Positions 7,349 to 28,226 of a DNA stretch of 64,000 bases are shown here, piece after piece. The stretch is from Escherichia coli. GTDB lineage: Bacteria; Pseudomonadota; Gammaproteobacteria; Enterobacterales; Enterobacteriaceae. Position 1 is the stretch's first letter. Each line of letters opens with the position of its first letter. A program made the position numbers and the translations under genes. The notes under the pieces are model-generated. The model worked only from the letters and a program-made list of their open reading frames with translations. It did no database searches and was not told the origin of the DNA. Where the stretch lies: assembly GCF_029227855.1 (NCBI RefSeq), contig NZ_CP074356.1; one strand, 5' to 3'.

Positions 7349-7379
7349 TCACCAAAATGGATAGGGGATGATTTAACGA

Positions 7380-8138: not shown

Positions 8139-8183
8139 GGCTGGCGGGATACTTTTTACTATCAACGATAAGGTCAGGCTGAA

Positions 8184-9533
8184 TTGGCGGGTTTTAACAT
8201 CAAACATTGGTTTGCAGATGGCGCGTTTCGCACCATTATTCGCAATAGCGCCTGGTTAGGCTCCAGTAATGTCGTGAGCGCTTTGCTGGGTCTGTTGGCG
8301 CTCTCGTGTGCCGGTAAAGGGATGACGCCCGCCATGTTTGGCGTACTGGTGATTGTGCAATCGTACGCCAAGTCGATCAGCGATTTTATTAAGTTTCAGA
8401 CATGGCAGTTGGTGGTGCAGTACGGAACGCCAGCCTTGACCAACAATAATCCGCAGCAATTTCGCAATGTCGTCTCATTTTCCTTCTCGTTGGATATCGT
8501 CAGCGGCGCGGTGGCGATTGTCGGCGGCATTGCCTTACTCCCTTTTCTTTCCCATTCATTAGGTCTGGATGACCAAAGCTTTTGGCTGGCAGCGCTGTAT
8601 TGCACGCTCATTCCTTCAATGGCTTCCTCCACGCCGACCGGCATTCTGCGTGCGGTAGATCGCTTCGACTTAATTGCTGTACAGCAGGCGACGAAACCTT
8701 TTCTGCGCGCAGCGGGGAGCGTCGTTGCCTGGTATTTTGACTTTGGTTTTGCGGGTTTTGTTATTGCCTGGTACGCCTCGAATCTTGTTGGCGGCACCAT
8801 GTACTGGTGGTTTGCCGCACGTGAATTACGCCGCAGAAATATCCATAACGCGTTCAAATTGAATCTGTTTGAGTCTGCCCGACACATCAAAGGCGCGTGG
8901 AGTTTTGTCTGGTCAACCAACATTGCCCATTCCATCTGGTCGGCGCGTAATTCGTGCAGCACAGTGTTGGTGGGGATCGTGTTAGGACCCGCTGCCGCCG
9001 GGTTATTTAAAATCGCCATGACATTCTTCGACGCCGCCGGAACGCCAGCGGGTTTACTGGGTAAAAGTTTTTACCCAGAGGTGATGCGTTTAGATCCGCG
9101 CACCACCAGACCGTGGTTGTTAGGCGTGAAGTCCGGTTTACTGGCGGGCGGAATCGGTATTCTGGTGGCGCTCGCGGTGTTGATCGTCGGCAAGCCGCTC
9201 ATTTCGCTGGTGTTTGGCGTTAAGTATCTCGAAGCGTATGACCTGATTCAGGTGATGCTGGGCGCAATTGTGATCTCGATGCTGGGCTTCCCTCAGGAGT
9301 CATTGCTATTGATGGCGGGAAAACAGCGCGCTTTTCTCGTGGCGCAAACCATCGCCTCAATCGGCTACATCGTATTGCTGTTCATGTTCTGTCATCTGTT
9401 TGGCGTGCTGGGGGCTGCATTTGCTTACTTCGGTGGGCAATGTCTGGATGTGGTGTTCTCGCTAATTCCGACCTTAAAGGCATTTTTTCAGCGCCATTCC
9501 TTGCTTTATAACTCAGCCGGAGAGAAATCCTGA
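8184..9533 (+). CDS. yghQ: YghQ, polytopic inner-membrane protein, MOP/Wzx-like putative flippase (449 aa as called from TTG start; first in-frame ATG is codon 47)
   Basis: Many hydrophobic segments throughout; N-terminus resembles polysaccharide-transporter family; stop overlaps downstream ATG (ATGA). Confidence 0.8.
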   Translation: MAGFNIKHWFADGAFRTIIRNSAWLGSSNVVSALLGLLALSCAGKGMTPAMFGVLVIVQSYAKSISDFIKFQTWQLVVQYGTPALTNNNPQQFRNVVSFSFSLDIVSGAVAIVGGIALLPFLSHSLGLDDQSFWLAALYCTLIPSMASSTPTGILRAVDRFDLIAVQQATKPFLRAAGSVVAWYFDFGFAGFVIAWYASNLVGGTMYWWFAARELRRRNIHNAFKLNLFESARHIKGAWSFVWSTNIAHSIWSARNSCSTVLVGIVLGPAAAGLFKIAMTFFDAAGTPAGLLGKSFYPEVMRLDPRTTRPWLLGVKSGLLAGGIGILVALAVLIVGKPLISLVFGVKYLEAYDLIQVMLGAIVISMLGFPQESLLLMAGKQRAFLVAQTIASIGYIVLLFMFCHLFGVLGAAFAYFGGQCLDVVFSLIPTLKAFFQRHSLLYNSAGEKS

Positions 9534-10357
9534 TGATGAGAAAATATTTCCCGCTTGAGGCGAGCGAGCGTCTATTTGTTGCGATTGAAGAAGATGATGT
9601 TGTTGATGCACAGGTCAGTTTGCCGCCGACTATCGCACTAAGTTGTACCACCGAAATCATCCATGATAATTACGCGTTATGCCTGCAATTCTGGCTCAAT
9701 GGCGTCAATCGCCAGGAGTTACTGCGTTTAATATGCAAACAGGCCAAAGGCGATGAGCTGACTGCTGATGAGCGCAAACAATTTAAATACATGCGAGCGC
9801 GCTACAAGCACCTGCGTTTTGCGCAACGGCTGTATTTAAAAAAGCATCAGGCCGGATTTTTATTCGGCAAAACGACCGTTTTTTTGGGGCGTTTTCAGGA
9901 CGGCTTTCGTAACGGTAAGAAAAATATTGTGTCGTATTACGGCAACCTGTTACGGGTTTATTTAAGCTCTCCGGTCTGGTCGTTGGTGAACTATTCATTA
10001 CGCCATAGCCAGTTAGAAAGCGTAAGCGGTTTTATTGCCTATCGGCAAAAGCAAATGCATACCCTGAAAGAGATAATTGCCAAATCGCGACTAACTGGCA
10101 GGGAATTTCATGATGTGCGAAAAATCATCAGCCAGCAGGTTTCTTATTACGACACCCTAAGATCGCTTGATCCTGAAAATAAAGAGGCGTTACAGATTTC
10201 CCGCTTCCTCGCCGCCATTAATGGCCTGATGGGGGATAAACACGACGACATGGTGGCGGATGATATGGAAAACCGCCAGTCGTATGATGCACCGATGGCG
10301 CTGGATAGCGATATTCGTCAGCGCTTAGAACTGCTGATTTCGCGTTTTCCGCTATAA
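9533..10357 (+). CDS. Hypothetical soluble protein (274 aa), translationally coupled to yghQ
   Basis: ATG overlaps yghQ stop; no transmembrane segments or signal peptide evident; basic/aromatic-rich helical-looking sequence; no domain recognised by eye. Confidence 0.6.
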   Translation: MMRKYFPLEASERLFVAIEEDDVVDAQVSLPPTIALSCTTEIIHDNYALCLQFWLNGVNRQELLRLICKQAKGDELTADERKQFKYMRARYKHLRFAQRLYLKKHQAGFLFGKTTVFLGRFQDGFRNGKKNIVSYYGNLLRVYLSSPVWSLVNYSLRHSQLESVSGFIAYRQKQMHTLKEIIAKSRLTGREFHDVRKIISQQVSYYDTLRSLDPENKEALQISRFLAAINGLMGDKHDDMVADDMENRQSYDAPMALDSDIRQRLELLISRFPL

Positions 10358-10365
10358 CCGGAGCA

Positions 10366-10929
10366 ATGATGTCATCTCGTTTGATTATTGCGCTGGTTAT
10401 CATGCTCTTAGCCCCGGGTGTGCAGGCGCACAATTTCGTCACTGGTAAAACGGTTACCCCTGTTTATATCCAGGAAGGCGGCGAGCTGCTTCTGAATAGC
10501 GAAGACGAAATTCACTACCAAAAGTGGAACAGCACACAGCTGGCGGGAAAAGTCCGCATTATTCAGTATATCGCCGGGCGTAAGTCGGCGAAGAAAAAGA
10601 ACTCACTGTTAATTAAAGCGGTTGAAGCGGCAAACTTTCCGCAGGATCGTTTTCAGCCCACCACCATTGTGAACACTGATGATGCCATCTTTGGTACCGG
10701 CTATTTTGTCGTTGGCAAAATCGAAAAAAATAAACGCCGCTATCCATGGGCGCAATTCGTTATTGACGGCAATGGACAGGGACGCGTTGCCTGGCACTTG
10801 CAGGAGCAGAGTTCAACCATTCTGGTGCTGAATAAAACCGGGCAAATTCAGTGGGCAAAGGACGGCAGCCTGACGCCGGAAGAGGTAGAACATGTCATTG
10901 CGCTGGCGCAGAAACTGATCAATGAATAA
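10366..10929 (+). CDS. Hypothetical exported (periplasmic) protein, 187 aa
   Basis: N-terminal signal peptide MMSSRLIIALVIMLLAPGVQA followed by hydrophilic mature domain; starts 8 nt after the previous stop. Confidence 0.6.
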   Translation: MMSSRLIIALVIMLLAPGVQAHNFVTGKTVTPVYIQEGGELLLNSEDEIHYQKWNSTQLAGKVRIIQYIAGRKSAKKKNSLLIKAVEAANFPQDRFQPTTIVNTDDAIFGTGYFVVGKIEKNKRRYPWAQFVIDGNGQGRVAWHLQEQSSTILVLNKTGQIQWAKDGSLTPEEVEHVIALAQKLINE

Positions 10930-10959
10930 AAAATTCAAAGGATTGAGGGCGTTAGTGAG

Positions 10960-12030
10960 ATGAAGCTGGTTGAACACTACATCATGCGTGGTACGCGCCG
11001 TCTGGTGCTGATTATCGTCGGTTTTCTGATCTTTATTTTCGCCAGCTACTCCGCACAGCGTTATCTGACCGAAGCGGCAAATGGGACATTAGCTCTTGAT
11101 GTTGTGCTGGATATTGTTTTCTACAAGGTGCTGATTGCACTGGAGATGTTGTTACCTGTTGGACTGTATGTGTCAGTTGGCGTGACGCTAGGGCAGATGT
11201 ATACCGACTCGGAAATTACCGCTATTTCTGCGGCGGGGGGCAGTCCGGGACGCTTGTACAAAGCCGTTCTTTATCTGGCGATACCGCTAAGTATTTTTGT
11301 CACCCTTCTGTCGATGTATGGTCGTCCGTGGGCTTATGCGCAGATTTATCAACTGGAGCAACAGTCACAGTCGGAGCTGGATGTTCGCCAGTTGCGGGCA
11401 AAGAAATTTAACACTAACGATAACGGACGAATGATCCTTTCGCAGACGGTTGATCAGGATAATAATCGCCTGACTGACGCGCTGATTTATACTTCTACTG
11501 CCAATCGAACCCGCATTTTCCGCGCCCGTTCGGTTGATGTGGTTGACCCATCACCTGAGAAACCGACCGTTATGTTGCATAACGGGACCGCCTATCTTCT
11601 CGATCATCAGGGGCGTGACGACAACGAACAGATCTACCGTAATCTGCAATTACATCTGAATCCGCTGGATCAAAGCCCTAACGTCAAACGCAAAGCAAAA
11701 TCGGTCACGGAGCTGGCGCGCTCCGCCTTTCCTGCCGATCATGCCGAACTGCAATGGCGACAAAGCCGTGGCCTGACAGCGTTGTTGATGGCGCTGCTGG
11801 CCATTTCATTAAGTCGGGTAAAACCGCGGCAAGGGCGATTTTCAACGTTATTGCCACTGACGTTGCTGTTTGTTGCCATTTTTTATGGCGGCGACGTCTG
11901 CCGTACGCTGGTGGCTAACGGCGCGATTCCCCTCATTCCTGGTTTGTGGTTAGTACCCGGACTCATGCTAATGGGCCTGCTGATGCTGGTCGCACGCGAC
12001 TTCTCTTTGCTGCAGAAATTTTCCCGATGA
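10960..12030 (+). CDS. LptF-like permease (YjgP/YjgQ family), 356 aa
   Basis: N-terminus MKLVEHYIMRGTRRLVLIIVGFLIFIF typical of LptF/LptG; hydrophobic N- and C-terminal segments flanking a large hydrophilic loop; ~360 aa; RBS upstream. Confidence 0.75.
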   Translation: MKLVEHYIMRGTRRLVLIIVGFLIFIFASYSAQRYLTEAANGTLALDVVLDIVFYKVLIALEMLLPVGLYVSVGVTLGQMYTDSEITAISAAGGSPGRLYKAVLYLAIPLSIFVTLLSMYGRPWAYAQIYQLEQQSQSELDVRQLRAKKFNTNDNGRMILSQTVDQDNNRLTDALIYTSTANRTRIFRARSVDVVDPSPEKPTVMLHNGTAYLLDHQGRDDNEQIYRNLQLHLNPLDQSPNVKRKAKSVTELARSAFPADHAELQWRQSRGLTALLMALLAISLSRVKPRQGRFSTLLPLTLLFVAIFYGGDVCRTLVANGAIPLIPGLWLVPGLMLMGLLMLVARDFSLLQKFSR

Positions 12031-13106
12031 ATGTTTTCAGTCGCTATTTAATCCGTCATCTCTTTCTCGGTTTTGCCGCCGCCGCAGGGCTATTGCTGCC
12101 GCTTTTTACTACCTTCAACCTGATTAACGAACTGGATGATGTCAGCCCGGGCGGTTATCGCTGGACTCAGGCGGTGCTGGTGGTGCTGATGACCTTACCG
12201 CGTACACTGGTCGAACTTTCGCCGTTTATCGCCTTATTGGGAGGGATTGTTGGCCTGGGGCAGTTATCGAAAAACAGTGAGCTTACCGCCATTCGCAGCA
12301 CTGGGTTTTCTATCTTCCGTATTGCACTGGTGGCGCTGGTTGCCGGGATATTGTGGACTGTTTCGTTAGGCGCGATAGATGAGTGGGTGGCGTCGCCATT
12401 GCAGCAACAGGCGCTGCAAATCAAATCGACTGCCACCGCGTTGGGGGAGGACGATGACATTACCGGCAATATGCTTTGGGCCAGGCGCGGTAATGAATTT
12501 GTGACGGTGAAATCGCTGAACGAGCAGGGCCAGCCTGTGGGCGTGGAGATATTTCATTATCGCGACGATCTCTCGCTCGAATCCTACATTTTTGCACGCA
12601 GTGCCTCCATTGAAGACGACAAAACATGGATCCTGCATGGTGTGAATCATAAAAAATGGTTGAATGGCAAAGAAACGCTGGAAACATCAGATAATCTTGC
12701 CTGGCAATCGGCCTTCACCAGTATGAATCTTGAAGAGTTATCGATGCCGGGAAATACTTTTTCTGTCCGTCAACTTAATCATTACATCCATTATTTGCAG
12801 GAAACTGGGCAACCCAGCAGCGAATACCGCCTTGCACTGTGGGAAAAACTGGGACAACCCATCCTGACCCTGGCGATGATTTTGCTGGCTGTGCCGTTTA
12901 CCTTTAGTGCCCCGCGTTCGCCAGGGATGGGTAGCCGTCTCGCTGTAGGCGTCATCGTTGGCTTACTCACCTGGATCAGCTATCAAATCATGGTCAATCT
13001 GGGGTTGCTATTTGCGTTGAGCGCACCTGTTACCGCGCTCGGTTTACCGGTAGCGTTTGTGCTGGTGGCGTTGAGCCTGGTGTATTGGTATGACAGACAA
13101 CATTAA
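12027..13106 (+). CDS. LptG-like permease (YjgP/YjgQ family), 359 aa
   Basis: Track ORF trimmed to ATG overlapping upstream stop (ATGA); MNVFSRYLIRHLFLGFAAAAGLLLPLF typical LptF/G N-terminus; same topology pattern as partner. Confidence 0.75.
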   Translation: MNVFSRYLIRHLFLGFAAAAGLLLPLFTTFNLINELDDVSPGGYRWTQAVLVVLMTLPRTLVELSPFIALLGGIVGLGQLSKNSELTAIRSTGFSIFRIALVALVAGILWTVSLGAIDEWVASPLQQQALQIKSTATALGEDDDITGNMLWARRGNEFVTVKSLNEQGQPVGVEIFHYRDDLSLESYIFARSASIEDDKTWILHGVNHKKWLNGKETLETSDNLAWQSAFTSMNLEELSMPGNTFSVRQLNHYIHYLQETGQPSSEYRLALWEKLGQPILTLAMILLAVPFTFSAPRSPGMGSRLAVGVIVGLLTWISYQIMVNLGLLFALSAPVTALGLPVAFVLVALSLVYWYDRQH

Positions 13107-13107
13107 A

Positions 13108-13136
13108 CCCGCCGTGGCGCAGCGCCACAGCGGGCT
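13108..13136. terminator. Palindromic stem-loop between convergent operons (probable bidirectional terminator)
   Basis: cccgccgtggcgc a gcgccacagcggg inverted repeat in the 34-bp gap between the LptG-like stop and the alpha-oxoamine synthase stop. Confidence 0.45.
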
Positions 13137-13140
13137 CACA

Positions 13141-14313
13141 TTACTGCTTCAGAGTAGCGAACGCTTGAATGATGGCATCAATTTGCTCACGACTGTGGGC
13201 AGCGTTTACGCTACAGCGCAGCAGCGTGATGCCTGCAGGCGCGGCAGGTGGCAGGATAAGATTCACATAAACGCCCAGCGAAATAAGCTCGCGCCAGATG
13301 CGTAAACCGTCCTCTTTCGAACCGATTATTACTGGCACTACCGGGCTAATATGTGAACTTAACTCGTAACCCAGTTTTTGCAGACCGTCATACAGATGGT
13401 TGGCGTTATCCATCAGCTTTTGCCGCAGCTCTGGTTGTGAGGCAATGGTTCTTAACGACGAGCGCACGGTCGCAATGCAGGACGGAGAAGGAGAGGCGGT
13501 AAAAATATACGGGCGGCTGCCGTAGCGCAGCACTTCCATCGCTTCCGAACCGACAGCAAAACCGCCAATCGAGGCCAGACTTTTACTGAAAGTACCAACG
13601 ATAATATCCACATCATCTTCAACGCCAACGGCTTCAGCCAGTCCGCGCCCCGTTGCGCCTAACACGCCAAACGAATGCGCTTCATCGACAATCAAATAAC
13701 CACCGAGACGACGTTTGATATCAACAATTTCCGCCAGCGGCGCAACGTCACCGAGCATACTGTAGATGCCTTCAACGATGATAATCGCCTCTTTTGCCCG
13801 TTCACCGAGGCGAACCATGCGCCGTTCCAGATCTTTAGCATCGTTATGGCGGAAACGAATAATTTCCGCGCCACCGAGAGAACAGGCGTCATAAATACTG
13901 GCGTGGCTGTCGGCATCCAGTAACACCACGGCGTTATGGTCGGCAAGTGCGCTGATGACGCCTAAATTAGCGGTATAACCGGTTGAAAAAACGATAGCGG
14001 TAGGGCGATTAAAAAACTCGGCGATCTCTTTCTCTAACGCCAGATGCGGCGCATAACTGCCGTTTGCCATACGAGAACCGGTGGTGCCGGTGCCTTGGGC
14101 CGCTAACGCTGCCTGACCTTCGGCGATGGCATCATGATTAAAGGTTAAACCGAGATAATTATTGGTCCCGGCCAGAATCACTTTTTTATTGCCGATCCGA
14201 CCTTCGGTGGCGGAATACACTTCATCAATACAGGTGCCAAACGGTGTTAACCCGTTGTCACTAAATTGCAGTCGCTCGCCAGCAAGGCGCGCATATTTAT
14301 CGTATAGCCCCAT
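13141..14313 (-). CDS. PLP-dependent alpha-oxoamine synthase, serine palmitoyltransferase-like (390 aa)
   Basis: Class-II aminotransferase fold signature with Schiff-base lysine in GTFSKSLASIGGF (the TFSKS variant is typical of SPT rather than BioF/KBL); Gly-rich loop TGTTGSRMANGS; start overlaps ACP stop (TAATG). Confidence 0.85.
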   Translation of the reverse strand: MGLYDKYARLAGERLQFSDNGLTPFGTCIDEVYSATEGRIGNKKVILAGTNNYLGLTFNHDAIAEGQAALAAQGTGTTGSRMANGSYAPHLALEKEIAEFFNRPTAIVFSTGYTANLGVISALADHNAVVLLDADSHASIYDACSLGGAEIIRFRHNDAKDLERRMVRLGERAKEAIIIVEGIYSMLGDVAPLAEIVDIKRRLGGYLIVDEAHSFGVLGATGRGLAEAVGVEDDVDIIVGTFSKSLASIGGFAVGSEAMEVLRYGSRPYIFTASPSPSCIATVRSSLRTIASQPELRQKLMDNANHLYDGLQKLGYELSSHISPVVPVIIGSKEDGLRIWRELISLGVYVNLILPPAAPAGITLLRCSVNAAHSREQIDAIIQAFATLKQ

Positions 14314-14561
14314 TATTTATTCTCCAGCCATGGAAGTAGTGTTTCCATTAATTGCGCAGGGGTTTTGACATCCAGCAGAATATTAATAGGAATGGAAATA
14401 TCGAATCTGTCTTCCAGCATCATTAAGAGATCCATCACTTTGATCGACTCCAGGCCAAGATCGTTGACGAGATCGCTGTCGGGCTTAATTTCCACACCGT
14501 TTTCGACCAAATCCTGTAAACAGGAAAGGATGTAATCCATTACTATTTCACGATTTACCAT
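14313..14561 (-). CDS. Acyl carrier protein (82 aa)
   Basis: Small acidic protein with phosphopantetheine-attachment motif DLGLESIKVMDL; located between reductase and alpha-oxoamine synthase. Confidence 0.8.
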   Translation of the reverse strand: MVNREIVMDYILSCLQDLVENGVEIKPDSDLVNDLGLESIKVMDLLMMLEDRFDISIPINILLDVKTPAQLMETLLPWLENK

Positions 14562-14592
14562 AGAAACGTTAACACACCTTTAAACAAGACAA

Positions 14593-15507
14593 TCAAAATA
14601 GCCCGTTGCGTAATGCGTGTTCCAGGCTAATCCCGGGAAACCAATTAATATCTTCAGAAATACGGTTATTACTTGCCGACCAGTCGGCGTGGGTTAATTC
14701 ACGAATTTTCGAGCGGGTCAGCATAGGTTCTTTACCTGCCAGGCGACTCAACGCGGTACTGATATCCGCAAGGCAGGTGAGTACCGGCAGAGGAATACCA
14801 ACCATTCGCACGGAACCACAACGGGCGTCGGCGGCAAGCTGTCGTACGTGTTGCCAGTCATAGCCGCCGGGGACGCCATCGCATAATTCATAGGTTTGCG
14901 TCTGTACAGTTTCGGCGCTTAACCACTGCCCCACGGCTTGCGCAAAATCGGTGATGTGCAGGAAAGAGAGTTGTGTATCTGGCGCACCAAGTCGTGGCAG
15001 CAGGCCGCGCAGCATCCAGTCAAACAGCGGTTTTAACTCTTTATCGCCGGGACCATACACGGCTGTCGGGCGAAAAACGCCCAGCGTAATTTCATCAGCC
15101 ATTGCAGTCAGCCGTTGTTCGGCGACGTGTTTGGAATTTGCGTACCAGGAGAGTTCGGGATGGCGCGCCGCCAGCGAAGAGATAAACAGAAAACGTTGGC
15201 AAAAGCCGCTCTCTTTTGCCGCTTGCATCAGTCGCAGGCTGCCGTCAACGTTACAGCGGGTAAAAATCTCTTCTTTGTGCCCGCGCACTTGCCCGGCGCA
15301 ATGGACCACCGCGCTGGCTCCGGCAACCAGTTCGCTAAGTGAATGAGTATCTTCCAGAGAACCGCGCACCCAGGTGAGATTATCATTGACGTGAGCGCGG
15401 GCAGTACGCGTCAATGCGCGAACGTGAAAGCCGCGGGCGAGCAGGTTATCGATAATATATTTACCGATAAACCCGGTAGCGCCCGTCACCGCGACAGTTT
15501 GATTCAT
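14593..15507 (-). CDS. NAD(P)-dependent epimerase/dehydratase-family (extended SDR) reductase, 304 aa
   Basis: N-terminal Rossmann motif VTGATGFIG; catalytic YANSK (YxxxK); start overlaps upstream stop (ATGA). Confidence 0.8.
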   Translation of the reverse strand: MNQTVAVTGATGFIGKYIIDNLLARGFHVRALTRTARAHVNDNLTWVRGSLEDTHSLSELVAGASAVVHCAGQVRGHKEEIFTRCNVDGSLRLMQAAKESGFCQRFLFISSLAARHPELSWYANSKHVAEQRLTAMADEITLGVFRPTAVYGPGDKELKPLFDWMLRGLLPRLGAPDTQLSFLHITDFAQAVGQWLSAETVQTQTYELCDGVPGGYDWQHVRQLAADARCGSVRMVGIPLPVLTCLADISTALSRLAGKEPMLTRSKIRELTHADWSASNNRISEDINWFPGISLEHALRNGLF

Positions 15508-17228
15508 GCCAGGGATTCCTGCACATGAAGGCTTGCAGCATAAGCCTTCTGATAACGTTTTTTCGCTTCCGCACGGGCAGGCTTGCCGGAGGACGTTCGG
15601 GGAATACTGTGGGGCGGCAACAGATCGATAGCCGCGGTCACGCCAAATTCGCTTTGGATCCGTGCTGCCAGCGCGTGGATAAGCTGCCCGCGACGTTCTT
15701 CATCGCTGATCCGACACTGGATCTGCAAAATGATTTTTTCCTGGGCGGTAACAAAAGCAATCGCATCGCCAGAATGAATTTCCGGTTCCTGTTCCGCAAT
15801 ATATTCAATATCCTGCGGCCAGATATTACGGCCACGAATAATAATCAGATCTTTAATGCGTCCGGTGACATACAGATAACCGTCCAGCAGATAACCGAGG
15901 TCGCCGGTGTCTAACCAGCCCGTCGCGGCAATCTCGTCTTGTGAAATCTGGTCGCCAAAGTAACCGCTCATCAGGCTAGGGCCGGAGATGCAAATATGGC
16001 CTACCACACGTTCCGCGACAGGTATACCTGCTTCATTGCGGATTTCAATGCCATGTTCCGGCAACGCTTTACCGCAGTTGACGAAAGTCGATACGGCGCG
16101 TGTTTCAGCATCCGGCGCGACGGCTTTGCCCTGATATTCGAGGATGTCGCGATCCACTTCGTTAACCACAACCCCGGAAGCTTCATCAGAGAAGCTGACA
16201 GCCAGCGCATTTTCTGCCAGTCCGTAGCACGGCATGAAAGTTTTATCGTCAAAGTTGACCTGACGGAAACATTCAGCGAATTGATGGAGTTGTTCTGCGG
16301 AGATGGGTTCTGCACCAATACCAGCGACGCGCCAGCAGGAAAGATCCAGTTCAGCGAGATCTTTTTCATTCACGCGGCGCTGGCACAATTCATAGCCAAA
16401 CGGCGGCGCAACGGAAACGGTGCCGCGATTTTTACTGATCAATTTAAGCCATTGCAGAGGACGCATGGCAAAATCCTGAGTGCGCAAATAATCTACTGAA
16501 AGCTGCGTGGCGACGGGGGTCAGGAGAAAGCCGACCAGTCCCATATCATGGTAGAAAGGCAGCCAGGAGACGCAGCGGTCGCCAGGGCGTAATTTAATGC
16601 CATCGTGGCTTATAGCACGTAGATTAGCCATCACTTCGCGATGGGTGATAATGACGCCACGGGGAAAACGGGTGCTGCCGGAGGTGTACTGGAGGTAGGC
16701 GATATCGTTCGGAACTGGATGCTGGAGTGCAACATCGGCTTCCGGTAATGCCTTAAACCAGGCGTGGCTTAAAACATGTAATTCGGGGTTGTTGTTATGC
16801 GTCGCGGCATTGACCAGCGGTAACCACTCATCACCAGTGATAATGGCTGCGGGCTGGCAACTTGTCAGTAAACCCTGCAGTTTGGCGCTCCAGGAATCCC
16901 GCTGACCGACGCCCATTGGAATCGCCAACGGGACGGCGACTAAGCCGGCATACTGGCAGGAAAAAAAAGCCTCTACGAACCCGCTACTGGTTTCGGCAAT
17001 CAGCGCCACGCGATCGCCTTTTTTCAGGTTCAGCGATAACAACCGCTTCGCACCAGCTTCGGCACGCGCTTTTAACGTCTGATATTCCAGTTGATCTTCA
17101 AGTTGGCAACGTCTGTCATAAAAATTCATTCCGGCGCTACTCAGAGCGGCGTAGTCCAAAGCATCAACCAGCGTTGGAAAATCGGCATAGCGCATAGGTA
17201 GGGAATGCGTAAAGATTTTATTAGACAT
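15504..17228 (-). CDS. Fatty acyl-AMP ligase / acyl-ACP synthetase-like adenylating enzyme (~574 aa; track ORF extends to TTG at 17255)
   Basis: AMP-binding core YTSGSTRFPRGV; WLPFYHDMGLVG motif and overall length resemble FAAL-type enzymes; first gene of the minus-strand operon. Start chosen at first ATG (MSNKIFTHSL). Confidence 0.8.
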   Translation of the reverse strand: MSNKIFTHSLPMRYADFPTLVDALDYAALSSAGMNFYDRRCQLEDQLEYQTLKARAEAGAKRLLSLNLKKGDRVALIAETSSGFVEAFFSCQYAGLVAVPLAIPMGVGQRDSWSAKLQGLLTSCQPAAIITGDEWLPLVNAATHNNNPELHVLSHAWFKALPEADVALQHPVPNDIAYLQYTSGSTRFPRGVIITHREVMANLRAISHDGIKLRPGDRCVSWLPFYHDMGLVGFLLTPVATQLSVDYLRTQDFAMRPLQWLKLISKNRGTVSVAPPFGYELCQRRVNEKDLAELDLSCWRVAGIGAEPISAEQLHQFAECFRQVNFDDKTFMPCYGLAENALAVSFSDEASGVVVNEVDRDILEYQGKAVAPDAETRAVSTFVNCGKALPEHGIEIRNEAGIPVAERVVGHICISGPSLMSGYFGDQISQDEIAATGWLDTGDLGYLLDGYLYVTGRIKDLIIIRGRNIWPQDIEYIAEQEPEIHSGDAIAFVTAQEKIILQIQCRISDEERRGQLIHALAARIQSEFGVTAAIDLLPPHSIPRTSSGKPARAEAKKRYQKAYAASLHVQESLA

Positions 17229-17599
17229 ATACACCACGAAAAAATTGGATATCAAAAATAAAATGACAATAATGCGGTGGATTATATAGGCATAAAAGAT
17301 AAATGAGATAATATTTTCATCAGTGTGAAAATGAACATTGATTTAAATAATGAGTTTGAGTTTTTTTGTTTTTATTGTGAATGATATTTAATTTATGAAT
17401 GTATTAAGAAGAAGCCTTGTCCGGTCGCCTTAAATCGACAAAAGGCATTGTGGCGCTTCTGTGTAGTCTCTGACCTTATCGTAATCATTAATAAATACTA
17501 TTTATTCGTCGTTTGTATTCATTGGGTTGATTATTAAGGTGCCGTTCGTTGCTGTTGCAACCTGTTTTTCACCGTTAATTATTTGTTACCCACAGAACT
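17229..17599. promoter_or_regulatory. AT-rich divergent control region between lipid operon (-) and yghO (+)
   Basis: ~370 bp strongly AT-rich non-coding DNA with A/T tracts; no ORF with coding character; expected site of promoters for both flanking units. Confidence 0.35.
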
Positions 17600-18742
17600 A
17601 TGGAATGCGATCTGCTGATGATTAAAATTGAAAAAGTAATTAATAAAAATGACCTTAAGGCATTTATCGCTTTTCCGTCATCACTTTATCCCGACGATCC
17701 AAACTGGATACCCCCTTTATTCATTGAACGCAACGAGCATTTGTCTGCGAAAAATCCGGGGACGGACCATATCATCTGGCAGGCGTGGGTGGCAAAAAAA
17801 GCGGGGCAGATAGTTGGGCGTATTACCGCGCAAATAGATACCTTGCACCGCGAGCGTTACGGTGAAGATACCGGTCATTTCGGCATGATTGACGCCATTG
17901 ATGATCCGCAGGTTTTTGCCGCGTTGTTTGGCGCAGCGGAAGCGTGGTTGAAGTCACAAGGTGCAAGTAAGATCAGCGGTCCTTTCAGCCTGAATATCAA
18001 TCAGGAAAGCGGATTACTGATTGAAGGTTTCGATACACCACCCTGTGCGATGATGCCGCACGGTAAACCGTGGTATGCCGCGCATATTGAACAATTGGGT
18101 TATCACAAAGGCATTGATTTACTAGCGTGGTGGATGCAGCGAACCGATCTCACTTTCTCTCCGGCGCTAAAAAAACTGATGGATCAGGTGCGTAAGAAGG
18201 TGACCATTCGCTGCATCAATCGCCAGCGGTTTGCCGAAGAGATGCAGATCCTGCGTGAGATTTTCAACTCTGGCTGGCAGCACAACTGGGGATTTGTGCC
18301 GTTTACCGAACATGAATTCGCGACTATGGGCGATCAACTTAAATATCTGGTGCCGGACGATATGATCTACATCGCTGAGATTGATTCTGCACCCTGCGCG
18401 TTTATTGTTGGCTTGCCAAACATCAACGAGGCGATTGCCGATCTGAACGGATCGCTCTTTCCCTTCGGCTGGGCAAAATTGCTGTGGCGTTTAAAAGTCA
18501 GCGGTGTGCGAACTGCGCGAGTACCGCTGATGGGCGTGCGGGACGAGTATCAGTTTAGCCGCATCGGCCCGGTGATTGCGCTGTTATTGATTGAAGCCTT
18601 ACGCGATCCGTTTGCCCGCCGGAAGATCGATGCGCTGGAGATGTCATGGATCCTCGAAACCAATACAGGCATGAATAACATGCTGGAACGCATTGGGGCG
18701 GAGCCGTACAAGCGTTACCGATTGTATGAAAAGCAGATTTGA
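17600..18742 (+). CDS. yghO: YghO-family protein, intact (380 aa); possible acyl-CoA N-acyltransferase-like fold
   Basis: Uninterrupted ORF, soluble; position matches yghO next to glcC. Fold assignment is tentative. Confidence 0.7.
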   Translation: MECDLLMIKIEKVINKNDLKAFIAFPSSLYPDDPNWIPPLFIERNEHLSAKNPGTDHIIWQAWVAKKAGQIVGRITAQIDTLHRERYGEDTGHFGMIDAIDDPQVFAALFGAAEAWLKSQGASKISGPFSLNINQESGLLIEGFDTPPCAMMPHGKPWYAAHIEQLGYHKGIDLLAWWMQRTDLTFSPALKKLMDQVRKKVTIRCINRQRFAEEMQILREIFNSGWQHNWGFVPFTEHEFATMGDQLKYLVPDDMIYIAEIDSAPCAFIVGLPNINEAIADLNGSLFPFGWAKLLWRLKVSGVRTARVPLMGVRDEYQFSRIGPVIALLLIEALRDPFARRKIDALEMSWILETNTGMNNMLERIGAEPYKRYRLYEKQI

Positions 18743-18748
18743 TGGCAG

Positions 18749-19513
18749 TCACCCCTGCATCATCTCCAGCGGCACCGCCGAGCGAATCAAATGGTGGCCT
18801 TCCAGCTCGATATCGTGGAGATTCTTTTTCACGGTCCGCACATGATCGCGTGCTGCGCGCTGGGCGACGTGCGGCAGCCGCTGCAACACCGCGTTGTAGA
18901 TCCGCGCATGCTGGCGATCGATCTGCTTTTTTTGCTGTGGTCGATGGTAGAGATTATTTACGCTGGCAAACACTGAATTAAACATCAGATCGGTCAATGA
19001 TTGCAGCGTAAACACCAACACCTGATTGTGAGAAGCCTGACAAATGGCGAGATGGAAAGCGTGATCCAACTGCGCATGTTCGATCAGCGAAATCTCTTTG
19101 TTGTTCTCACTGGCGGCGAGCATTTTTTCATAACAGCGGGTTATCACAACAAAATCAGCCTGGGTTCCCAGCGTTGCCGCCAGCCTTGCCGATTCGCCCT
19201 CCAGCAATGCGCGAACGTCGAGCAGATCGTACAGCGTTCGCGGCTGCGTGCTGAACAGATGAATTAGCGGGCTGGTGTCCTGCACCCGATTAAGCCGTGC
19301 GACACGAGAATCGCGACCCTGCGCTGTTTCAATAATCCCGCGCCCGCGCAGCACGGTCAGCCCTTCACGCAGTGCGGAGCGTGAGAAGCCGAGCTTTTCA
19401 CACAGTCGACGTTCCGAGGGAAGCGGCTGACCGACCTTCAGTACGCCGTCGATAATTAACCGTTCGATACTCTCTGCAACCACTTCGCAAATAGGGCGAC
19501 GTTCATCTTTCAT
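18749..19513 (-). CDS. glcC: GlcC, GntR/FadR-family transcriptional activator of glc operon (254 aa)
   Basis: Track ORF trimmed to MKDERRPICEVVAESIERLI...; N-terminal winged-HTH; divergent from glcD. Confidence 0.9.
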   Translation of the reverse strand: MKDERRPICEVVAESIERLIIDGVLKVGQPLPSERRLCEKLGFSRSALREGLTVLRGRGIIETAQGRDSRVARLNRVQDTSPLIHLFSTQPRTLYDLLDVRALLEGESARLAATLGTQADFVVITRCYEKMLAASENNKEISLIEHAQLDHAFHLAICQASHNQVLVFTLQSLTDLMFNSVFASVNNLYHRPQQKKQIDRQHARIYNAVLQRLPHVAQRAARDHVRTVKKNLHDIELEGHHLIRSAVPLEMMQG

Positions 19514-19763
19514 TCCCGGACCTCGTGCACAGGTAGGACCAATTTTTCTGTTCTTAACTCGCAAAACACGCACATCACGTAAGTGATTATGTTACATCAA
19601 TTTAACATTAAGTTAACCAAGACAAGGTCACAGAGCTGGAAAAAAAATGGTCTGACCGGTAGCTAAAGAGATAGACGAAAACGAAAAGCCCGCTTAATAA
19701 CTGTTCACAGAAGCAGCGCGCAAAAATCAGCTGCCACACAACACAACAAAGCGAAGCCTACTC
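19514..19763. promoter_or_regulatory. glcC-glcD divergent promoter/operator region
   Basis: 250-bp intergenic region between divergent glcC and glcD starts; known architecture of glc locus; individual sites not mapped. Confidence 0.5.
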
Positions 19764-21263
19764 ATGAGCATCTTGTACGAAGAGCGTCTTGATGGCGCTT
19801 TACCCGATGTCGACCGCACATCGGTACTGATGGCACTGCGTGAGCATGTCCCTGGACTTGAGATCCTGCATACCGATGAGGAGATCATTCCTTATGAGTG
19901 TGACGGGTTGAGCGCGTATCGCACGCGTCCATTACTGGTTGTTCTGCCTAAGCAAATGGAACAGGTGACAGCGATTCTGGCTGTTTGTCACCGCCTGCGT
20001 GTATCGGTGGTGACCCGTGGTGCAGGCACCGGGCTTTCTGGTGGCGCGCTGCCGCTGGAAAAAGGTGTGTTGTTGGTGATGGCGCGCTTTAAAGAGATCC
20101 TCGACATTAACCCCGTTGGTCGCCGCGCGCGCGTGCAGCCGGGCGTGCGTAATCTGGCGATCTCCCAGGCCGTTGCGCCGCATAATCTCTATTACGCGCC
20201 GGATCCTTCCTCACAAATCGCCTGTTCAATTGGCGGCAATGTGGCGGAAAATGCCGGTGGCGTTCACTGCCTGAAATATGGTCTGACCGTACATAACCTG
20301 CTGAAAATTGAAGTGCAAACGCTGGACGGCGAGGCGCTGACGCTGGGATCGGATGCGCTGGATTCTCCTGGTTTTGACCTGCTGGCGCTGTTCACCGGAT
20401 CGGAAGGTATGCTCGGCGTGACCACCGAAGTGACGGTAAAACTGCTGCCGAAGCCGCCCGTGGCTCGGGTTCTGTTAGCCAGCTTTGACTCGGTAGAAAA
20501 AGCCGGACTTGCGGTTGGTGACATCATCGCCAATGGCATTATCCCCGGCGGGCTGGAGATGATGGATAACCTGTCGATCCGCGCAGCGGAAGATTTTATT
20601 CATGCCGGTTATCCCGTCGACGCCGAAGCGATTTTGTTATGCGAGCTGGACGGCGTGGAGTCTGACGTACAGGAAGACTGCGAGCGGGTTAACGACATCT
20701 TGTTGAAAGCGGGCGCGACTGACGTCCGTCTGGCACAGGACGAAGCAGAGCGCGTACGTTTCTGGGCCGGTCGCAAAAATGCGTTCCCGGCGGTAGGACG
20801 TATCTCCCCGGATTACTACTGCATGGATGGCACCATCCCGCGCCGCGCCCTGCCTGGCGTACTGGAAGGCATTGCCCGTTTATCGCAGCAATATGATTTA
20901 CGCGTTGCTAACGTCTTTCATGCCGGAGATGGCAACATGCACCCGTTAATCCTTTTCGATGCCAACGAACCCGGTGAATTTGCCCGCGCGGAAGAGCTGG
21001 GCGGGAAGATCCTCGAACTCTGCGTTGAAGTTGGCGGCAGCATCAGTGGGGAACATGGCATCGGGCGCGAAAAAATCAATCAAATGTGCGCCCAGTTCAA
21101 CAGCGATGAAATCACGACCTTCCATGCGGTCAAGGCGGCGTTTGACCCCGATGGTTTGCTGAACCCGGGGAAAAACATTCCCACGCTACACCGCTGTGCT
21201 GAATTTGGTGCCATGCATGTGCATCACGGTCATTTACCTTTCCCTGAACTGGAGCGTTTCTGA
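19764..21263 (+). CDS. glcD: Glycolate oxidase FAD-linked subunit GlcD (499 aa)
   Basis: FAD-binding PCMH-type domain, length and operon context. Confidence 0.92.
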   Translation: MSILYEERLDGALPDVDRTSVLMALREHVPGLEILHTDEEIIPYECDGLSAYRTRPLLVVLPKQMEQVTAILAVCHRLRVSVVTRGAGTGLSGGALPLEKGVLLVMARFKEILDINPVGRRARVQPGVRNLAISQAVAPHNLYYAPDPSSQIACSIGGNVAENAGGVHCLKYGLTVHNLLKIEVQTLDGEALTLGSDALDSPGFDLLALFTGSEGMLGVTTEVTVKLLPKPPVARVLLASFDSVEKAGLAVGDIIANGIIPGGLEMMDNLSIRAAEDFIHAGYPVDAEAILLCELDGVESDVQEDCERVNDILLKAGATDVRLAQDEAERVRFWAGRKNAFPAVGRISPDYYCMDGTIPRRALPGVLEGIARLSQQYDLRVANVFHAGDGNMHPLILFDANEPGEFARAEELGGKILELCVEVGGSISGEHGIGREKINQMCAQFNSDEITTFHAVKAAFDPDGLLNPGKNIPTLHRCAEFGAMHVHHGHLPFPELERF

Positions 21264-22315
21264 TGCTACGCGAGTGTGATTACAGCCAGGCGCTGCTGGA
21301 GCAGGTGAATCAGGCGATTAGCGATAAAACGCCGCTGGTGATTCAGGGCAGCAATAGCAAAGCCTTTTTAGGTCGTCCTGTCACCGGGCAAACGCTGGAT
21401 GTGCGTTGTCATCGCGGAATTGTTAATTACGACCCGACCGAGCTGGTGATAACCGCTCGTGCCGGAACGCCGCTGGTGGCGATTGAAGCGGCGCTGGAGA
21501 GCGCCGGGCAAATGCTCCCCTGCGAGCCGCCACATTATGGTGAAGAAGCTACCTGGGGCGGGATGGTCGCCTGCGGGCTGGCGGGGCCGCGTCGCCCGTG
21601 GAGCGGTTCGGTCCGCGATTTTGTCCTCGGCACGCGCATCATTACCGGCACTGGAAAACATCTGCGTTTTGGTGGCGAAGTGATGAAAAACGTTGCCGGA
21701 TACGATCTCTCACGGTTAATGGCCGGAAGCTACGGTTGTCTGGGTGTGCTCACTGAAATCTCGATGAAAGTGTTACCGCGACCACGCGCCACCCTGAGCC
21801 TGCGTCGGGAAATCAGCCTGCAAGAAGCTATGAACGAAATCGCCCAGTGGCAACTCCAGCCATTACCCATTAGTGGCTTATGTTACTTCGACAATGCGTT
21901 GTGGATCCGCCTTGAGGGCGGCGAAGGATCGGTAAAAGCAGCGCGTGAACTGCTGGGTGGCGAAGAGGTTGCGGGTCAGTTCTGGCAGAAATTGCGTGAA
22001 CAACAACTGCCGTTCTTCTCGTTACCAGGTACCTTATGGCGCATTTCCTTACCCTGCGATGCGCCGATGATGGATTTACCCGGCGAGCAACTGATCGACT
22101 GGGGCGGGGCGTTACGCTGGCTGAAATCGACAGCCGAGGACAATCAAATCCATCGCATCGCCCGCAACGCTGGCGGTCATGCGACCCGCTTTAGTGCCGG
22201 AGATGGTGGCTTTGCCCCGCTATCGGCTCCTTTATTCCGCTATCACCAGCAGCTTAAACAGCAGCTCGACCCTTGCGGCGTGTTTAATCCCGGTCGCATG
22301 TACGCGGAGCTTTAA
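21263..22315 (+). CDS. glcE: Glycolate oxidase FAD-binding subunit GlcE (350 aa)
   Basis: Start overlaps glcD stop; FAD-binding domain protein; operon position. Confidence 0.92.
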   Translation: MLRECDYSQALLEQVNQAISDKTPLVIQGSNSKAFLGRPVTGQTLDVRCHRGIVNYDPTELVITARAGTPLVAIEAALESAGQMLPCEPPHYGEEATWGGMVACGLAGPRRPWSGSVRDFVLGTRIITGTGKHLRFGGEVMKNVAGYDLSRLMAGSYGCLGVLTEISMKVLPRPRATLSLRREISLQEAMNEIAQWQLQPLPISGLCYFDNALWIRLEGGEGSVKAARELLGGEEVAGQFWQKLREQQLPFFSLPGTLWRISLPCDAPMMDLPGEQLIDWGGALRWLKSTAEDNQIHRIARNAGGHATRFSAGDGGFAPLSAPLFRYHQQLKQQLDPCGVFNPGRMYAEL

Positions 22316-22325
22316 GGAGCAGGCT

Positions 22326-23549: not shown

Positions 23550-23553
23550 CAAA

Positions 23554-23958: not shown

Positions 23959-23979
23959 GCGAAAACGAGGAGATAAATA

Positions 23980-28188: not shown

Positions 28189-28197
28189 ATCAATAAT

Positions 28198-28226
28198 GCC
28201 GGATGATCGTTAATATCATCCGGCTT
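28198..28226 (+). terminator. Stem-loop after glcA (probable terminator)
   Basis: gccggatgat...atcatccggc inverted repeat directly after glcA stop followed by T-containing tract. Confidence 0.45.

Follow-up and report, generated by a model that had tools for sequence, protein, structure and literature searches.

YghO of Escherichia coli, a probable tandem-GNAT N-acyltransferase orthologous to bacterial ceramide synthase, beside a candidate sphingolipid gene island lost from K-12

The yghO locus and its counterpart in K-12

The stretch of E. coli DNA analysed here, 64,000 nucleotides of contig NZ_CP074356.1 (hereafter the window), carries yghO tail-to-tail with glcC and, on the other side of yghO, a set of genes of sphingolipid type (Table 1). 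In the open reading frame list of the window, yghO was a single uninterrupted frame that starts with ATG and runs for 380 codons with no internal stop, and the annotation of the 100% identical strain JNEC-KY178 agreed with it, giving a RefSeq yghO of 1143 nt, a 6-bp gap and then glcC. The intact 380-aa frame of the original prediction was thereby borne out, with the qualification that translation probably begins further in. Homologues outside Escherichia are 374 aa long and start at the ATG equivalent to position 17618, which in other Enterobacterales is preceded by TAAGGnTnTTT and, in most cases, closely by a stop codon. The upstream ATG at 17600, by comparison, occurred in none of the aligned sequences but the two from Escherichia (the window and locus L005). 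On this alignment, ATG 17618 is probably the conserved start and the 374-aa product the true one.

Table 1. Features of the yghO region, in window coordinates
Feature	Coordinates	Strand	Basis and remarks
Full-length yghQ (MOP-flippase-like, 449 aa), 274-aa hypothetical, YtfJ-family protein	8184..10929	+	NCBIfam, RefSeq
Segment absent from K-12 MG1655, IS5 in its place	9253..17639		8,387 bp; 3' part of yghQ to first yghO codons
lptF/lptG paralogues (second copies)	10960..13106	+	TIGR04407 320 bits, TIGR04408 305 bits; candidate sphingolipid export permeases
spt, serine palmitoyltransferase	13141..14313	-	NCBIfam NF047599 equivalog, 599 bits (cutoff 500)
acpR, specialised acyl carrier protein	14313..14561	-	Sub-threshold ACP family matches; WP_000248097.1, identical in BL21
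cerR-like NAD-dependent epimerase/dehydratase-family reductase	14593..15507	-	NCBIfam SDR/epimerase-family matches; = ECD_02852 'epi'
aasR-type fatty acyl-AMP ligase / acyl-ACP synthetase	15504..17228	-	NCBIfam NF006624, 870 bits; = ECD_02851
AT-rich divergent intergenic region aasR/yghO	17229..17617		389 bp; presumed promoters of both units
yghO CDS, RefSeq form	17600..18742	+	380 aa, TGA 18740-18742; ORF list and JNEC-KY178 annotation
yghO CDS, conserved-start form	17618..18742	+	374 aa; probable; aligned ATG in other genera
N-terminal GNAT-like domain (predicted)	17618..18157	+	Residues 1 to ~180 of 374; AlphaFold2 elements E2-6 to E163-174
C-terminal GNAT domain (predicted)	18194..18739	+	Residues ~193-374; motif A/B-like stretch LMGVRDEYQFSRIGPV...SWILETNTGMNNMLERIG; AlphaFold2 model
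Spacer TGGCAG between convergent stops	18743..18748		6 bp, read from sequence
glcC, GntR-family glycolate regulator, 254 aa	18749..19513	-	NCBIfam NF007442 GlcC, 510 bits (cutoff 301); RefSeq

At E<=1e-3 the YghO family counts 6,489 cluster representatives, and at the stricter E<=1e-30 it counts 1,128; almost all of these proteins have the full length of about 375-390 aa. The dN/dS of the gene is 0.015-0.06 (0.015 within E. coli, about 0.05 across Enterobacterales genera). The gene is under strong purifying selection and, given this large full-length family and these ratios, is not a chance open reading frame. It lies on the strand opposite to the aasR-cerR-acpR-spt operon and is thus a separate transcription unit. 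The region between the two units contains a weak consensus promoter match, and the GC content of the interval 17000-17999 is 0.41. The neighbouring genes have been studied in BL21 (PMC9386255), where ECD_02851 was examined as AasR(Ec), ECD_02853 (AcpR) was found to carry 4'-phosphopantetheine, and ECD_02854 (Spt) was assayed as an enzyme. The adjacent P-loop kinases YghR/S/T were considered as ceramide-kinase homologues, but the idea was not kept up; they are annotated as dTMP-kinase-like, and the descriptions set them apart from Caulobacter CpgB, a GGDG-motif lipid kinase that has been compared with sphingosine, diacylglycerol and YegS-type kinases.

In the blastn comparison, the K-12 locus matched the window at 17640-29774 and 4592-9252 only, and IS5LO is annotated at the gap. 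The IS5 replacement removed the yghO promoter, the first yghO codons and the whole spt cluster; because of this IS5-associated 8.4-kb deletion, K-12 yghO (b2981) is left without its native start, its promoter and its cluster, and is a 5'-truncated, IS5-fused remnant. The original prediction called the gene a K-12 pseudogene, which is apt as to structure and not as to annotation: current RefSeq gives b2981 as a 390-aa CDS whose 5' end lies 70 nt into IS5, carries no pseudogene flag, and is named 'putative DNA-binding transcriptional regulator YghO'. Among 5,426 complete genomes, yghO with its upstream region was at least 80% retained in 4,139 and had no match in 875; in strain 21AH057, yghO and the glc operon were lost together through an IS1-associated rearrangement.

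Predicted fold, orthology and gene linkage of YghO

Searches with the single YghO protein were uniformly negative: Pfam returned no match even at E<=10, DNA-binding and TLC domains included, NCBIfam no family, and the PDB sequences only chance matches (E>=0.1). It is to be noted that the GNAT signal emerged only from the family profile and from structure, not from single-sequence searches. In the family profile, positions 311-380 aligned with GNAT motif A/B of 3tt2 (E 0.0045) and 2ge3 (E 0.039), the motif A loop being atypical in that four residues are inserted in it as compared with 3tt2. Within the family, G306 and N349 do not vary, and R301, E341 and W344 hardly do. PF00583 was matched by 6 of 82 relatives at E<=1e-3 and by 27 of them at E<=0.1, and a precomputed match to it exists for some close homologues.

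The AlphaFold2 model (pLDDT 95.9, pTM 0.92) is tandem GNAT throughout, with domain limits that are approximate, having been taken from its list of secondary-structure elements. In Foldseek, the N-terminal and C-terminal domains were covered by whole-chain matches to tandem GNAT proteins, of which the best in the PDB were 2wpw/2wpx (E 1.6e-15, probability 1.00), followed by 5kf1, 7q3a, MshD (1ozp/2c27), VipF, Eis and FemX, all of them tandem GNATs; the 50 best fold matches listed were GNAT/Fem-type acyltransferases or uncharacterised proteins, and none was a DNA-binding protein. The model, the fold search and the family profile bear out the GNAT-like N-acyltransferase fold that had been suggested for YghO, with the whole modelled chain covered by two GNAT domains. 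The model is globular alpha/beta, and its element list holds no long hydrophobic helices, which suggests a soluble or peripheral protein. In tandem GNATs, the C-terminal domain is usually the catalytic one, as in MshD.

YghO shares its two-domain architecture with the solved tandem GNATs, namely the clavulanic-acid-pathway protein 2wpw/2wpx, glucosamine N-acetyltransferase 5kf1, MAB_4324 (7q3a) and mycothiol synthase MshD, to which it aligned over the whole chain at Foldseek E 1e-15 to 1e-11 and TM 0.5-0.7. Nonetheless, it is longer than these by 40-60 residues and only 10-14% identical to them, and its predicted substrates differ: the acyl donor would be long-chain and the acceptor the amine of a lipid, in place of the acetyl-CoA and the small polar acceptors of the solved enzymes. 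Because the identity to solved GNATs is so low, the fold does not reveal the substrate.

The orthology of YghO to the bacterial ceramide synthase is on record. Padilla-Gómez et al. 2022 (PMC9386255) list 'aca: CC_1154, yghO ECD_02850' as orthologues, with 44% identity, 61% similarity, 98% coverage and E 1e-107 between CC_1154 and ECD_02850, the latter being yghO by BL21 gene order. YghO is thus reported to be a full-length orthologue of the Caulobacter crescentus enzyme known as bCerS, CerS or Aca (CC_1154 = CCNA_01212; Olea-Ozuna et al. 2021; Stankeviciute et al. 2022). This protein is encoded by one of five genes needed for dihydroceramide formation; it is peripheral in its behaviour, and no transmembrane region is predicted in it. 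bCerS resembles YghO in having no predicted membrane-spanning fold, and its gene resembles yghO in forming its own transcription unit beside, but apart from, the spt operon; cerS is described elsewhere as always lying in an operon other than that of spt (PMC11324152). The Caulobacter cluster and the E. coli island have spt, acpR, aasR, cerR, lptF2/lptG2 and a flippase-like gene in common. They differ in that bCerS is tied to ceramide by genetics, whereas YghO is known here from sequence and predicted fold; E. coli, in contrast to Caulobacter, is not known to contain sphingolipids, glcC downstream of yghO is an Escherichia-only feature, and an unsystematic look over the stretch of the E. coli island examined recognised no cpgABC-type head-group genes. 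With the eukaryotic ceramide synthases (Lag1/CerS, TLC domain), YghO would share the chemistry, i.e., N-acylation of a sphingoid base with acyl-CoA, but they are integral membrane proteins, whereas YghO has an unrelated alpha/beta GNAT fold and no Pfam TLC match; the title of the bCerS description puts the relation between the bacterial and eukaryotic enzymes down to convergent evolution.

Homologues in other genera were also found by tblastn to align nearly end to end, with 50% identity over residues 2-374 at a Nitrosomonas eutropha locus (L059) and 60% over residues 4-374 at an Azotobacter vinelandii locus (L029). Neut_1100 is listed in the literature as the aca orthologue of N. eutropha, and an orthologue table has been published for A. 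vinelandii; these are matched to our loci by species only. The names attached to YghO relatives are inconsistent (N-acetyltransferase, DNA-binding protein, dATP pyrophosphohydrolase), and none of the AFDB50 matches is labelled 'ceramide synthase'; one homologue is named at its source 'Hypothetical protein associated with Serine palmitoyltransferase'.

That last name fits the gene neighbourhoods. Linkage was surveyed in the best 80 species-level loci of a 12-sequence genome scan, counting neighbours within 10 kb; these loci belong to gamma- and beta-proteobacteria and metagenome-assembled genomes (MAGs), and Caulobacter is not among them. A homologue of aasR was near that of yghO in 48, of spt in 44, of cerR in 42 and of acpR in 41, and LptF2 in 49, while aasR was not found within 10 kb in the remaining 32. 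The divergent layout is kept in most linked loci, from Enterobacterales, Pseudomonas, Azotobacter and Nitrococcus to Gemmatimonadota and Desulfobacterota MAGs. In Nitrosomonas-type loci only lptF2/lptG2 adjoin the homologue, with no spt within 10 kb, and Shimwellia has a second copy (L019) away from any cluster. The yghQ, 274-aa hypothetical and YtfJ-family genes each lie near a homologue in 13-16 of the 80 best loci, nearly all Enterobacterales, and glcC as the downstream neighbour is Escherichia-specific (1 of 80). Taken with the published orthology to CC_1154, this linkage points to a closer relation than the amide-forming step merely analogous to that of bacterial ceramide synthase that had been proposed from the sequence.

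A putative ceramide pathway and its competitors

We consider it likely that YghO is a soluble, acyl-CoA-dependent N-acyltransferase of the tandem-GNAT type and the Escherichia orthologue of bCerS, acting in the following pathway, and that the 3' end of its transcript overlaps with that of the glcC transcript. In the proposed pathway, AasR would charge the dedicated carrier AcpR with a fatty acid, and Spt would condense acyl-AcpR with serine to 3-oxo-sphinganine. YghO would then place a second acyl chain on the amine at C2, by which the amide bond of (oxo)dihydroceramide is made, and the SDR-type CerR may reduce the 3-keto group before or after this step. Candidates for export are the LptF2/LptG2 paralogues and YghQ, which is flippase-like. 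The reading frame, fold, family, purifying selection, gene linkage and K-12 deletion come from the present analysis, and the CC_1154 orthology and the activities of BL21 Spt, AcpR and AasR from the literature; from these we infer the substrates of YghO and the running of the pathway in E. coli. A hint of such activity comes from BL21(DE3), which, when forced to form 3-oxo-sphinganine, gave TLC spots with the mobility of sphinganine and ceramide, made 'possibly by intrinsic enzymes' (PMC9386255), of which YghO may be one.

Whether the pathway ordinarily runs is a separate matter. The island may be intact yet cryptic in E. coli, i.e., silent or used only in some niche, with no lipid made ordinarily and loss free of cost; this is somewhat unlikely, though it deserves serious weight. 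It would accommodate the loss of the cluster to IS5 in K-12, that of yghO with the glc operon in 21AH057, and the 875 complete genomes without a match, and the AT-rich intergenic region could fit silencing by H-NS. The BL21 experiments can be read in the same sense, in that 3-oxo-sphinganine was obtained there through plasmid co-expression of Spt, AcpR and AasR (PMC9386255). A silent island, however, is at odds with the low dN/dS, both within E. coli (0.015) and between genera (about 0.05), and with the retention of at least 80% of the region in 4,139 of 5,426 genomes; the host-like GC content, in turn, argues against a decaying recent import. Since crypticity concerns when the enzyme works and not what YghO does, it is compatible with YghO being the bCerS orthologue.

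The identity of the substrate is questioned more directly if YghO is a GNAT acting on another amine (e.g., that of an amino sugar, of an amino-acid lipid or of a lysine in a protein), with the spt neighbourhood reflecting a different though related reaction, for instance modification of the head group or of the long-chain base. Its closest solved folds do acetylate small molecules or proteins (5kf1, MshD, Eis, VipF), although at the low identity given above, and both the Nitrosomonas-type loci with no spt within 10 kb and the solitary Shimwellia copy would be natural under such a role. Against it stand the place of the Caulobacter orthologue among the five dihydroceramide genes, its reported 44% full-length identity, and the tight, orientation-conserving linkage to spt, acpR, cerR and aasR over a wide phylogenetic distance. 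In addition, the K-12 protein (ASKA clone), one of 25 GNATs in a lysine-acetylation screen, is absent from those for which acetylated bands were obtained. We therefore regard another amine substrate as distinctly unlikely and retain N-acylation of the sphingoid base as the probable activity.

If so, it is tenable, though somewhat doubtful, that most natural E. coli (about three-quarters of complete genomes) carry a working ceramide/sphingolipid pathway with LptF2/LptG2/flippase export, active outside laboratory conditions. Such a pathway, if real, would have escaped the field owing to the IS5-mediated loss of the island from K-12. An E. coli sphingolipid pathway was proposed earlier by the Geiger/Sohlenkamp group; our literature search on native sphingolipids in Enterobacteria returned nothing relevant.

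The junction with glcC and the meaning of the locus

The stop codons of yghO and glcC had been placed a few nucleotides apart, and the sequence puts the distance at exactly 6 bp: ...ATT TGA (18740-18742) is followed by TGGCAG (18743-18748) and by TCA (18749-18751), which on the opposite strand reads TGA, the stop of glcC. K-12 and BL21(DE3) also have the 6-bp spacing, but their spacer is TACCAG, and their junction haplotype differs from that of the window at 10 of 19 positions. A terminator scan at the junction found no terminator-like site. Since the stops stand only 6 bp apart and no intrinsic terminator is conserved at the junction, the 3' ends of the two transcripts should overlap. The pair glcC-yghO is indeed among the 165 convergent overlapping pairs of the MG1655 RNA-seq 'excludome' (ExcludonFinder, PMC12288877, 2025), where overlap was called for it in at least 50% of the 58 MG1655 samples. 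Short spacers are typical of these convergent excludon pairs, that of glcC-yghO being very short, and the window sequence, with its 6 bp and its empty scan, is compatible with overlap. The transcript evidence stems from K-12, whose yghO has no promoter of its own, and a regulatory role of the overlap is not implied.

The original prediction had allowed for either overlapping 3' ends or a very compact terminator shared by the two genes; the MG1655 pair favours the first, and the second was rejected as very unlikely. What speaks for a bidirectional terminator is that, in the window haplotype, both stop codons lie inside an imperfect 8-bp inverted repeat (TGATG-G-CAG...CTG-CATCA) that folds at -9.1 kcal/mol on the plus strand and -12.6 on the minus strand (z -0.9 and -1.9). 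This stem is adjoined by no U-tract, however, and folding of the wider junction region was not better than that of shuffled sequences (z +0.39 and -0.55). Furthermore, the K-12/BL21 haplotype is free of the hairpin (-1.9 and -4.5 kcal/mol, z>0), and yet the pair overlaps in the MG1655 samples. Overlap of the yghO and glcC transcripts thus remains the preferred reading of the junction.

Both yghO as a ceramide synthase orthologue (2021-2022) and the yghO-glcC convergent overlap (2025, PMC12288877) are already in print; the present analysis adds the predicted fold, the cross-species linkage survey, the exact K-12 breakpoints and the likely true start codon. That YghO is a DNA-binding transcriptional regulator is hardly credible and was rejected on the predicted fold (AlphaFold2 and Foldseek), for it has only annotation on its side (K-12 RefSeq, many UniProt entries and several AFDB relatives named 'DNA-binding protein') and against it the empty Pfam search, the confident tandem-GNAT model with no DNA-binding protein among the 50 best fold matches listed, and the discordant names of its relatives, typical of propagated guesses. 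The label 'DNA-binding regulator' of b2981, and 'DNA-binding protein' or 'dATP pyrophosphohydrolase' of its relatives, are annotation errors worth correcting.

At this locus, K-12 is a deletion mutant. For 'bacteria that have only glycerophospholipids and LPS', E. coli serves as the reference organism; it would be a sphingolipid producer if the products of yghO and the adjoining genes are active. Such production, if true, would bear on outer-membrane biology, on polymyxin and detergent sensitivity, and on host signalling by gut Enterobacteria.

Integrity and genomic linkage of yghO

The original prediction had described yghO as an uninterrupted frame of 380 codons, and this frame was indeed present, with a matching RefSeq annotation in E. 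coli JNEC-KY178, which is identical (100%) to the window across the yghO/glcC stretch and carries both genes at the same relative coordinates. The annotated start, ATG 17600 (380 aa), probably lies six codons upstream of the true one, as comparison of the sequences suggests: the homologues of other genera are 374 aa long and start at an ATG aligned with position 17618, with TAAGGnTnTTT directly 5' and an in-frame stop mostly upstream, and ATG 17600 was seen only in the two Escherichia sequences that were compared. From the low dN/dS in comparisons with BL21 (0.015), a divergent E. coli (0.059) and Pluralibacter (0.05), the gene is judged to be under strong purifying selection.

Features of the yghO region, with the evidence for each
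Feature	Position	Strand	Evidence or content
yghO	17600..18742	+	ORF listing; ATG start, 380 aa
glcC	stop-codon end at 18749	-	NCBIfam NF007442 (GlcC), 510 bits vs cutoff 301
yghO/glcC junction	ATT TGA (18740-18742), TGGCAG (18743-18748), TCA (18749-18751)		sequence
fatty acyl-AMP ligase (aasR)	divergent from yghO		NF006624, 870 bits
NAD-dependent epimerase/dehydratase-family reductase (cerR-like)	divergent from yghO		NCBIfam and RefSeq annotation
acyl carrier protein (acpR), 82 aa	divergent from yghO		NCBIfam and RefSeq annotation
serine palmitoyltransferase (spt)	divergent from yghO		NF047599 equivalog, 599 vs cutoff 500 bits
island	8184-13106		second copies of lptF and lptG, YtfJ-family protein, 274-aa hypothetical protein, full-length MOP-flippase-like YghQ

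Linkage was counted by tblastn with the window proteins, within 10 kb of the yghO homologue, in a scan that took one genome from each species. The best 80 species loci encoded YghO relatives of 47-96% identity, and the partner genes found were lptF2 (49/80), aasR (48/80), spt (44/80), cerR (42/80) and acpR (41/80). The linked loci, most of which retained the divergent layout of the window, span Enterobacterales, Pseudomonas, Azotobacter, Nitrococcus, and metagenome-assembled genomes of Gemmatimonadota and Desulfobacterota. As downstream neighbor, glcC occurred in E. coli only (one locus of the 80); thus, the tail-to-tail junction is an Escherichia-specific edge of the island, the GC content of which (0.47-0.54) equals that of the host. 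The Caulobacter sphingolipid cluster is described as likewise containing LptF2/LptG2 and a putative flippase. The 274-aa island protein matched no family.

In Nitrosomonas-type loci, the genes directly 3' of the yghO homologue are lptF2/lptG2, and spt is absent within 10 kb. Shimwellia pseudoproteus has two homologues (loci L006 and L019; 84% and 75% identity), one in a full cluster and the other lacking any partner gene within 10 kb. Beside the E. coli island, and kept in K-12, are yghT, yghS and yghR (window ~5770-8140), three P-loop paralogues of the 'dTMP kinase / nucleoside kinase family'; the Caulobacter ceramide kinase CpgB, described as having a GGDG motif, is a different kind of kinase.

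Fold of YghO and its proposed assignment as a ceramide synthase

Searched as a single sequence, YghO found neither a Pfam family, even at E<=10, nor an NCBIfam model, and by sequence it matched none of the PDB chains. At E<=1e-3, an exhaustive HMMER scan retrieved 6,489 cluster representatives, of which 1,128 also passed E<=1e-30, nearly all about 375-390 aa and aligned end to end, which by sequence is a large and uniform family. Some members far exceed 380 aa, namely P0121 (784 aa), P0132 (630 aa), P0191 (940 aa) and AFDB A0A258FMV3 (701 aa); P0121 matched the family in two stretches, and in others the YghO module forms one end of a bigger protein, so that fusion or tandem duplication is suggested.

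An AlphaFold2 model built from an 82-sequence alignment of YghO relatives (A1) reached a mean pLDDT of 95.9 and a pTM of 0.92. Its top Foldseek match in the PDB was the tandem GNAT of the clavulanic acid pathway (2wpw/2wpx, E 1.6e-15); other leading matches were the tandem GNATs glucosamine N-acetyltransferase 5kf1, MAB_4324 (7q3a) and mycothiol synthase MshD, followed by VipF, Eis and FemX, with a few uncharacterized proteins lower down. The family profile also had weak matches to GNAT chains, located in the C-terminal motif A/B region (3tt2, E 0.0045), and PF00583 was detected in 6 of the 82 relatives at E<=1e-3 and in 27 at E<=0.1. In the model, YghO indeed has the GNAT fold considered at the outset, in tandem form, and not the fold of a DNA-binding regulator. 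The K-12 label 'DNA-binding transcriptional regulator' is unsupported, given this fold and the lack of any DNA-binding protein among the top 50 PDB matches listed.

The amide-forming role suggested at the outset, analogous to bacterial ceramide synthase, is a sound idea and coincides with the published view. Padilla-Gómez et al. 2022 (PMC9386255) experimentally tested Spt (ECD_02854), AcpR (ECD_02853) and AasR (ECD_02851) of BL21(DE3), and their orthologue list gives 'aca: CC_1154, yghO ECD_02850', the published values for this pair being 44% identity at 98% coverage (E 1e-107). The BL21 RefSeq gene order (yghO, FAAL, epimerase, ACP, spt) is consistent with the consecutive ECD numbers, and the paper describes clustering of the five dihydroceramide genes as limited to C. 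crescentus and E. coli BL21. CC_1154 (bCerS/CerS) is reported among the five genes needed for dihydroceramide formation in Caulobacter. Its product is described as a protein of the cytoplasm, peripherally attached to the membrane, and has been proposed to acylate 3-ketodihydrosphingosine ahead of reduction by CerR; Spt, bCerS and CerR jointly serve as the signature by which sphingolipid-producing bacteria are recognized in genomes. The assignment of YghO is, therefore, already in the literature and not new.

From orthology, fold and linkage, it is quite likely that YghO N-acylates a long-chain base in a ceramide pathway. AasR would load a fatty acid on AcpR and Spt would condense the acyl-AcpR with serine, two steps shown for the BL21 enzymes (PMC9386255); the C-terminal GNAT domain of YghO would then N-acylate the resulting long-chain base with an acyl thioester as donor, CerR would reduce the 3-keto group either before or after acylation, and LptF2/LptG2 and YghQ are speculative candidates for export. 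Plasmid co-expression of Spt, AcpR and AasR in BL21 is reported to yield 3-oxo-sphinganine, along with ceramide-like spots made 'possibly by intrinsic enzymes' (PMC9386255). K-12 YghO reportedly gave no positive score in a lysine-acetylation screen of 25 GNATs, a mild argument against a protein-acetyltransferase role. No report of native sphingolipid production by E. coli was found in the literature searched.

Loss of the locus in K-12 and other E. coli

The K-12 MG1655 locus (L001) matches the window by blastn only at 17640-29774 and 4592-9252; the intervening 8,387 bp (9253-17639) are absent, and one IS5 copy stands instead (L001 12147-13341). Lost with them are the 3' portion of yghQ, the genes for the hypothetical and YtfJ-like proteins, lptF2, lptG2, spt, acpR, cerR, aasR, the intergenic region and the first yghO codons. 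The K-12 yghO (b2981) is a 390-aa RefSeq CDS, the 5' 70 nt of which lie inside IS5LO; by BLASTP its product is 98% identical to the window protein from residue 14 of the 380 onward and is preceded by unrelated, IS5-derived residues. One BW25113 IS5 copy is likewise reported to have yghO as its target gene (PMC11677980). Judged from these alignments, yghQ and yghO of K-12 are both cut (3' and 5', respectively) by the IS5 replacement, though annotated as ordinary CDSs. The description of yghO as a K-12 pseudogene was, thus, right as to a truncated remnant devoid of promoter and partners, but current annotation does not flag it as such.

In complete E. coli genomes, the yghO region was matched in 4,551 of 5,426 and covered to at least 80% in 4,139, counted by coverage of the region; yghO with its upstream region had no match in 875. 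Strain 21AH057 (L085; NZ_AP043965.1, 9001-9749) keeps the spt-aasR operon with IS1 immediately past aasR and lacks yghO, glcC and the glc operon at that place, a tRNA-Phe/integrase region coming next. Rearrangement by IS elements appears to occur readily at this locus.

The yghO-glcC junction and the meaning of the intact gene

The few nucleotides predicted between the opposing stop codons are exactly 6 bp, read directly from the sequence. Of the two 3' arrangements envisaged, transcript overlap is the supported one, since ExcludonFinder places glcC-yghO among 165 convergent overlapping pairs, with overlap in 50% or more of the 58 RNA-seq samples from MG1655, although these data come from K-12, whose yghO has no promoter of its own. 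Short convergent spacers with overlap are frequent in E. coli, so the junction is ordinary, and nothing shows the overlap to be regulatory.

A shared compact terminator, the other arrangement, is unsupported as a conserved feature. A consensus scan of both strands returned no terminator-like site in or close to the junction, and two segments surrounding it, 141 and 161 nt long, folded no better than shuffled controls (z +0.39 and -0.55). Alignment of four strains revealed two haplotypes, distinguished by 10 of the 19 positions at window 18741-18759 between otherwise identical flanks, both with the 6-bp spacing: TGA-TGGCAG-TCA in the window and strain SCPM (stops TGA/TGA, GlcC ending ...EMMQG), and TAA-TACCAG-CTA in K-12 and BL21 (stops TAA/TAG, ...EMNLS), the last three GlcC residues being MQG and NLS, respectively. 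The window haplotype forms a weak 8-bp hairpin over both stop codons (-9.1 and -12.6 kcal/mol, z -0.9 and -1.9), with no U-tract next to its stem, and the K-12 haplotype does not form it (-1.9 and -4.5 kcal/mol, z>0). Among 30 spread matches listed, the window type was the minority, as judged by alignments reaching the query end. Patch replacement or relaxed constraint could account for the two haplotypes.

YghO relatives are named N-acetyltransferase, DNA-binding protein or regulator, dATP pyrophosphohydrolase and VagC in the databases, and one is named 'Hypothetical protein associated with Serine palmitoyltransferase'. 'Ceramide synthase' was not a name among the matches listed; public annotation therefore lags behind the literature of 2021-2022. 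Overall, the intact yghO is a real feature, correctly read from the outset and already known, and the value of its analysis is modest, consisting of confirmation and a correction of annotation. The more interesting question, beyond the reach of sequence analysis, is that of sphingolipid production by wild E. coli.
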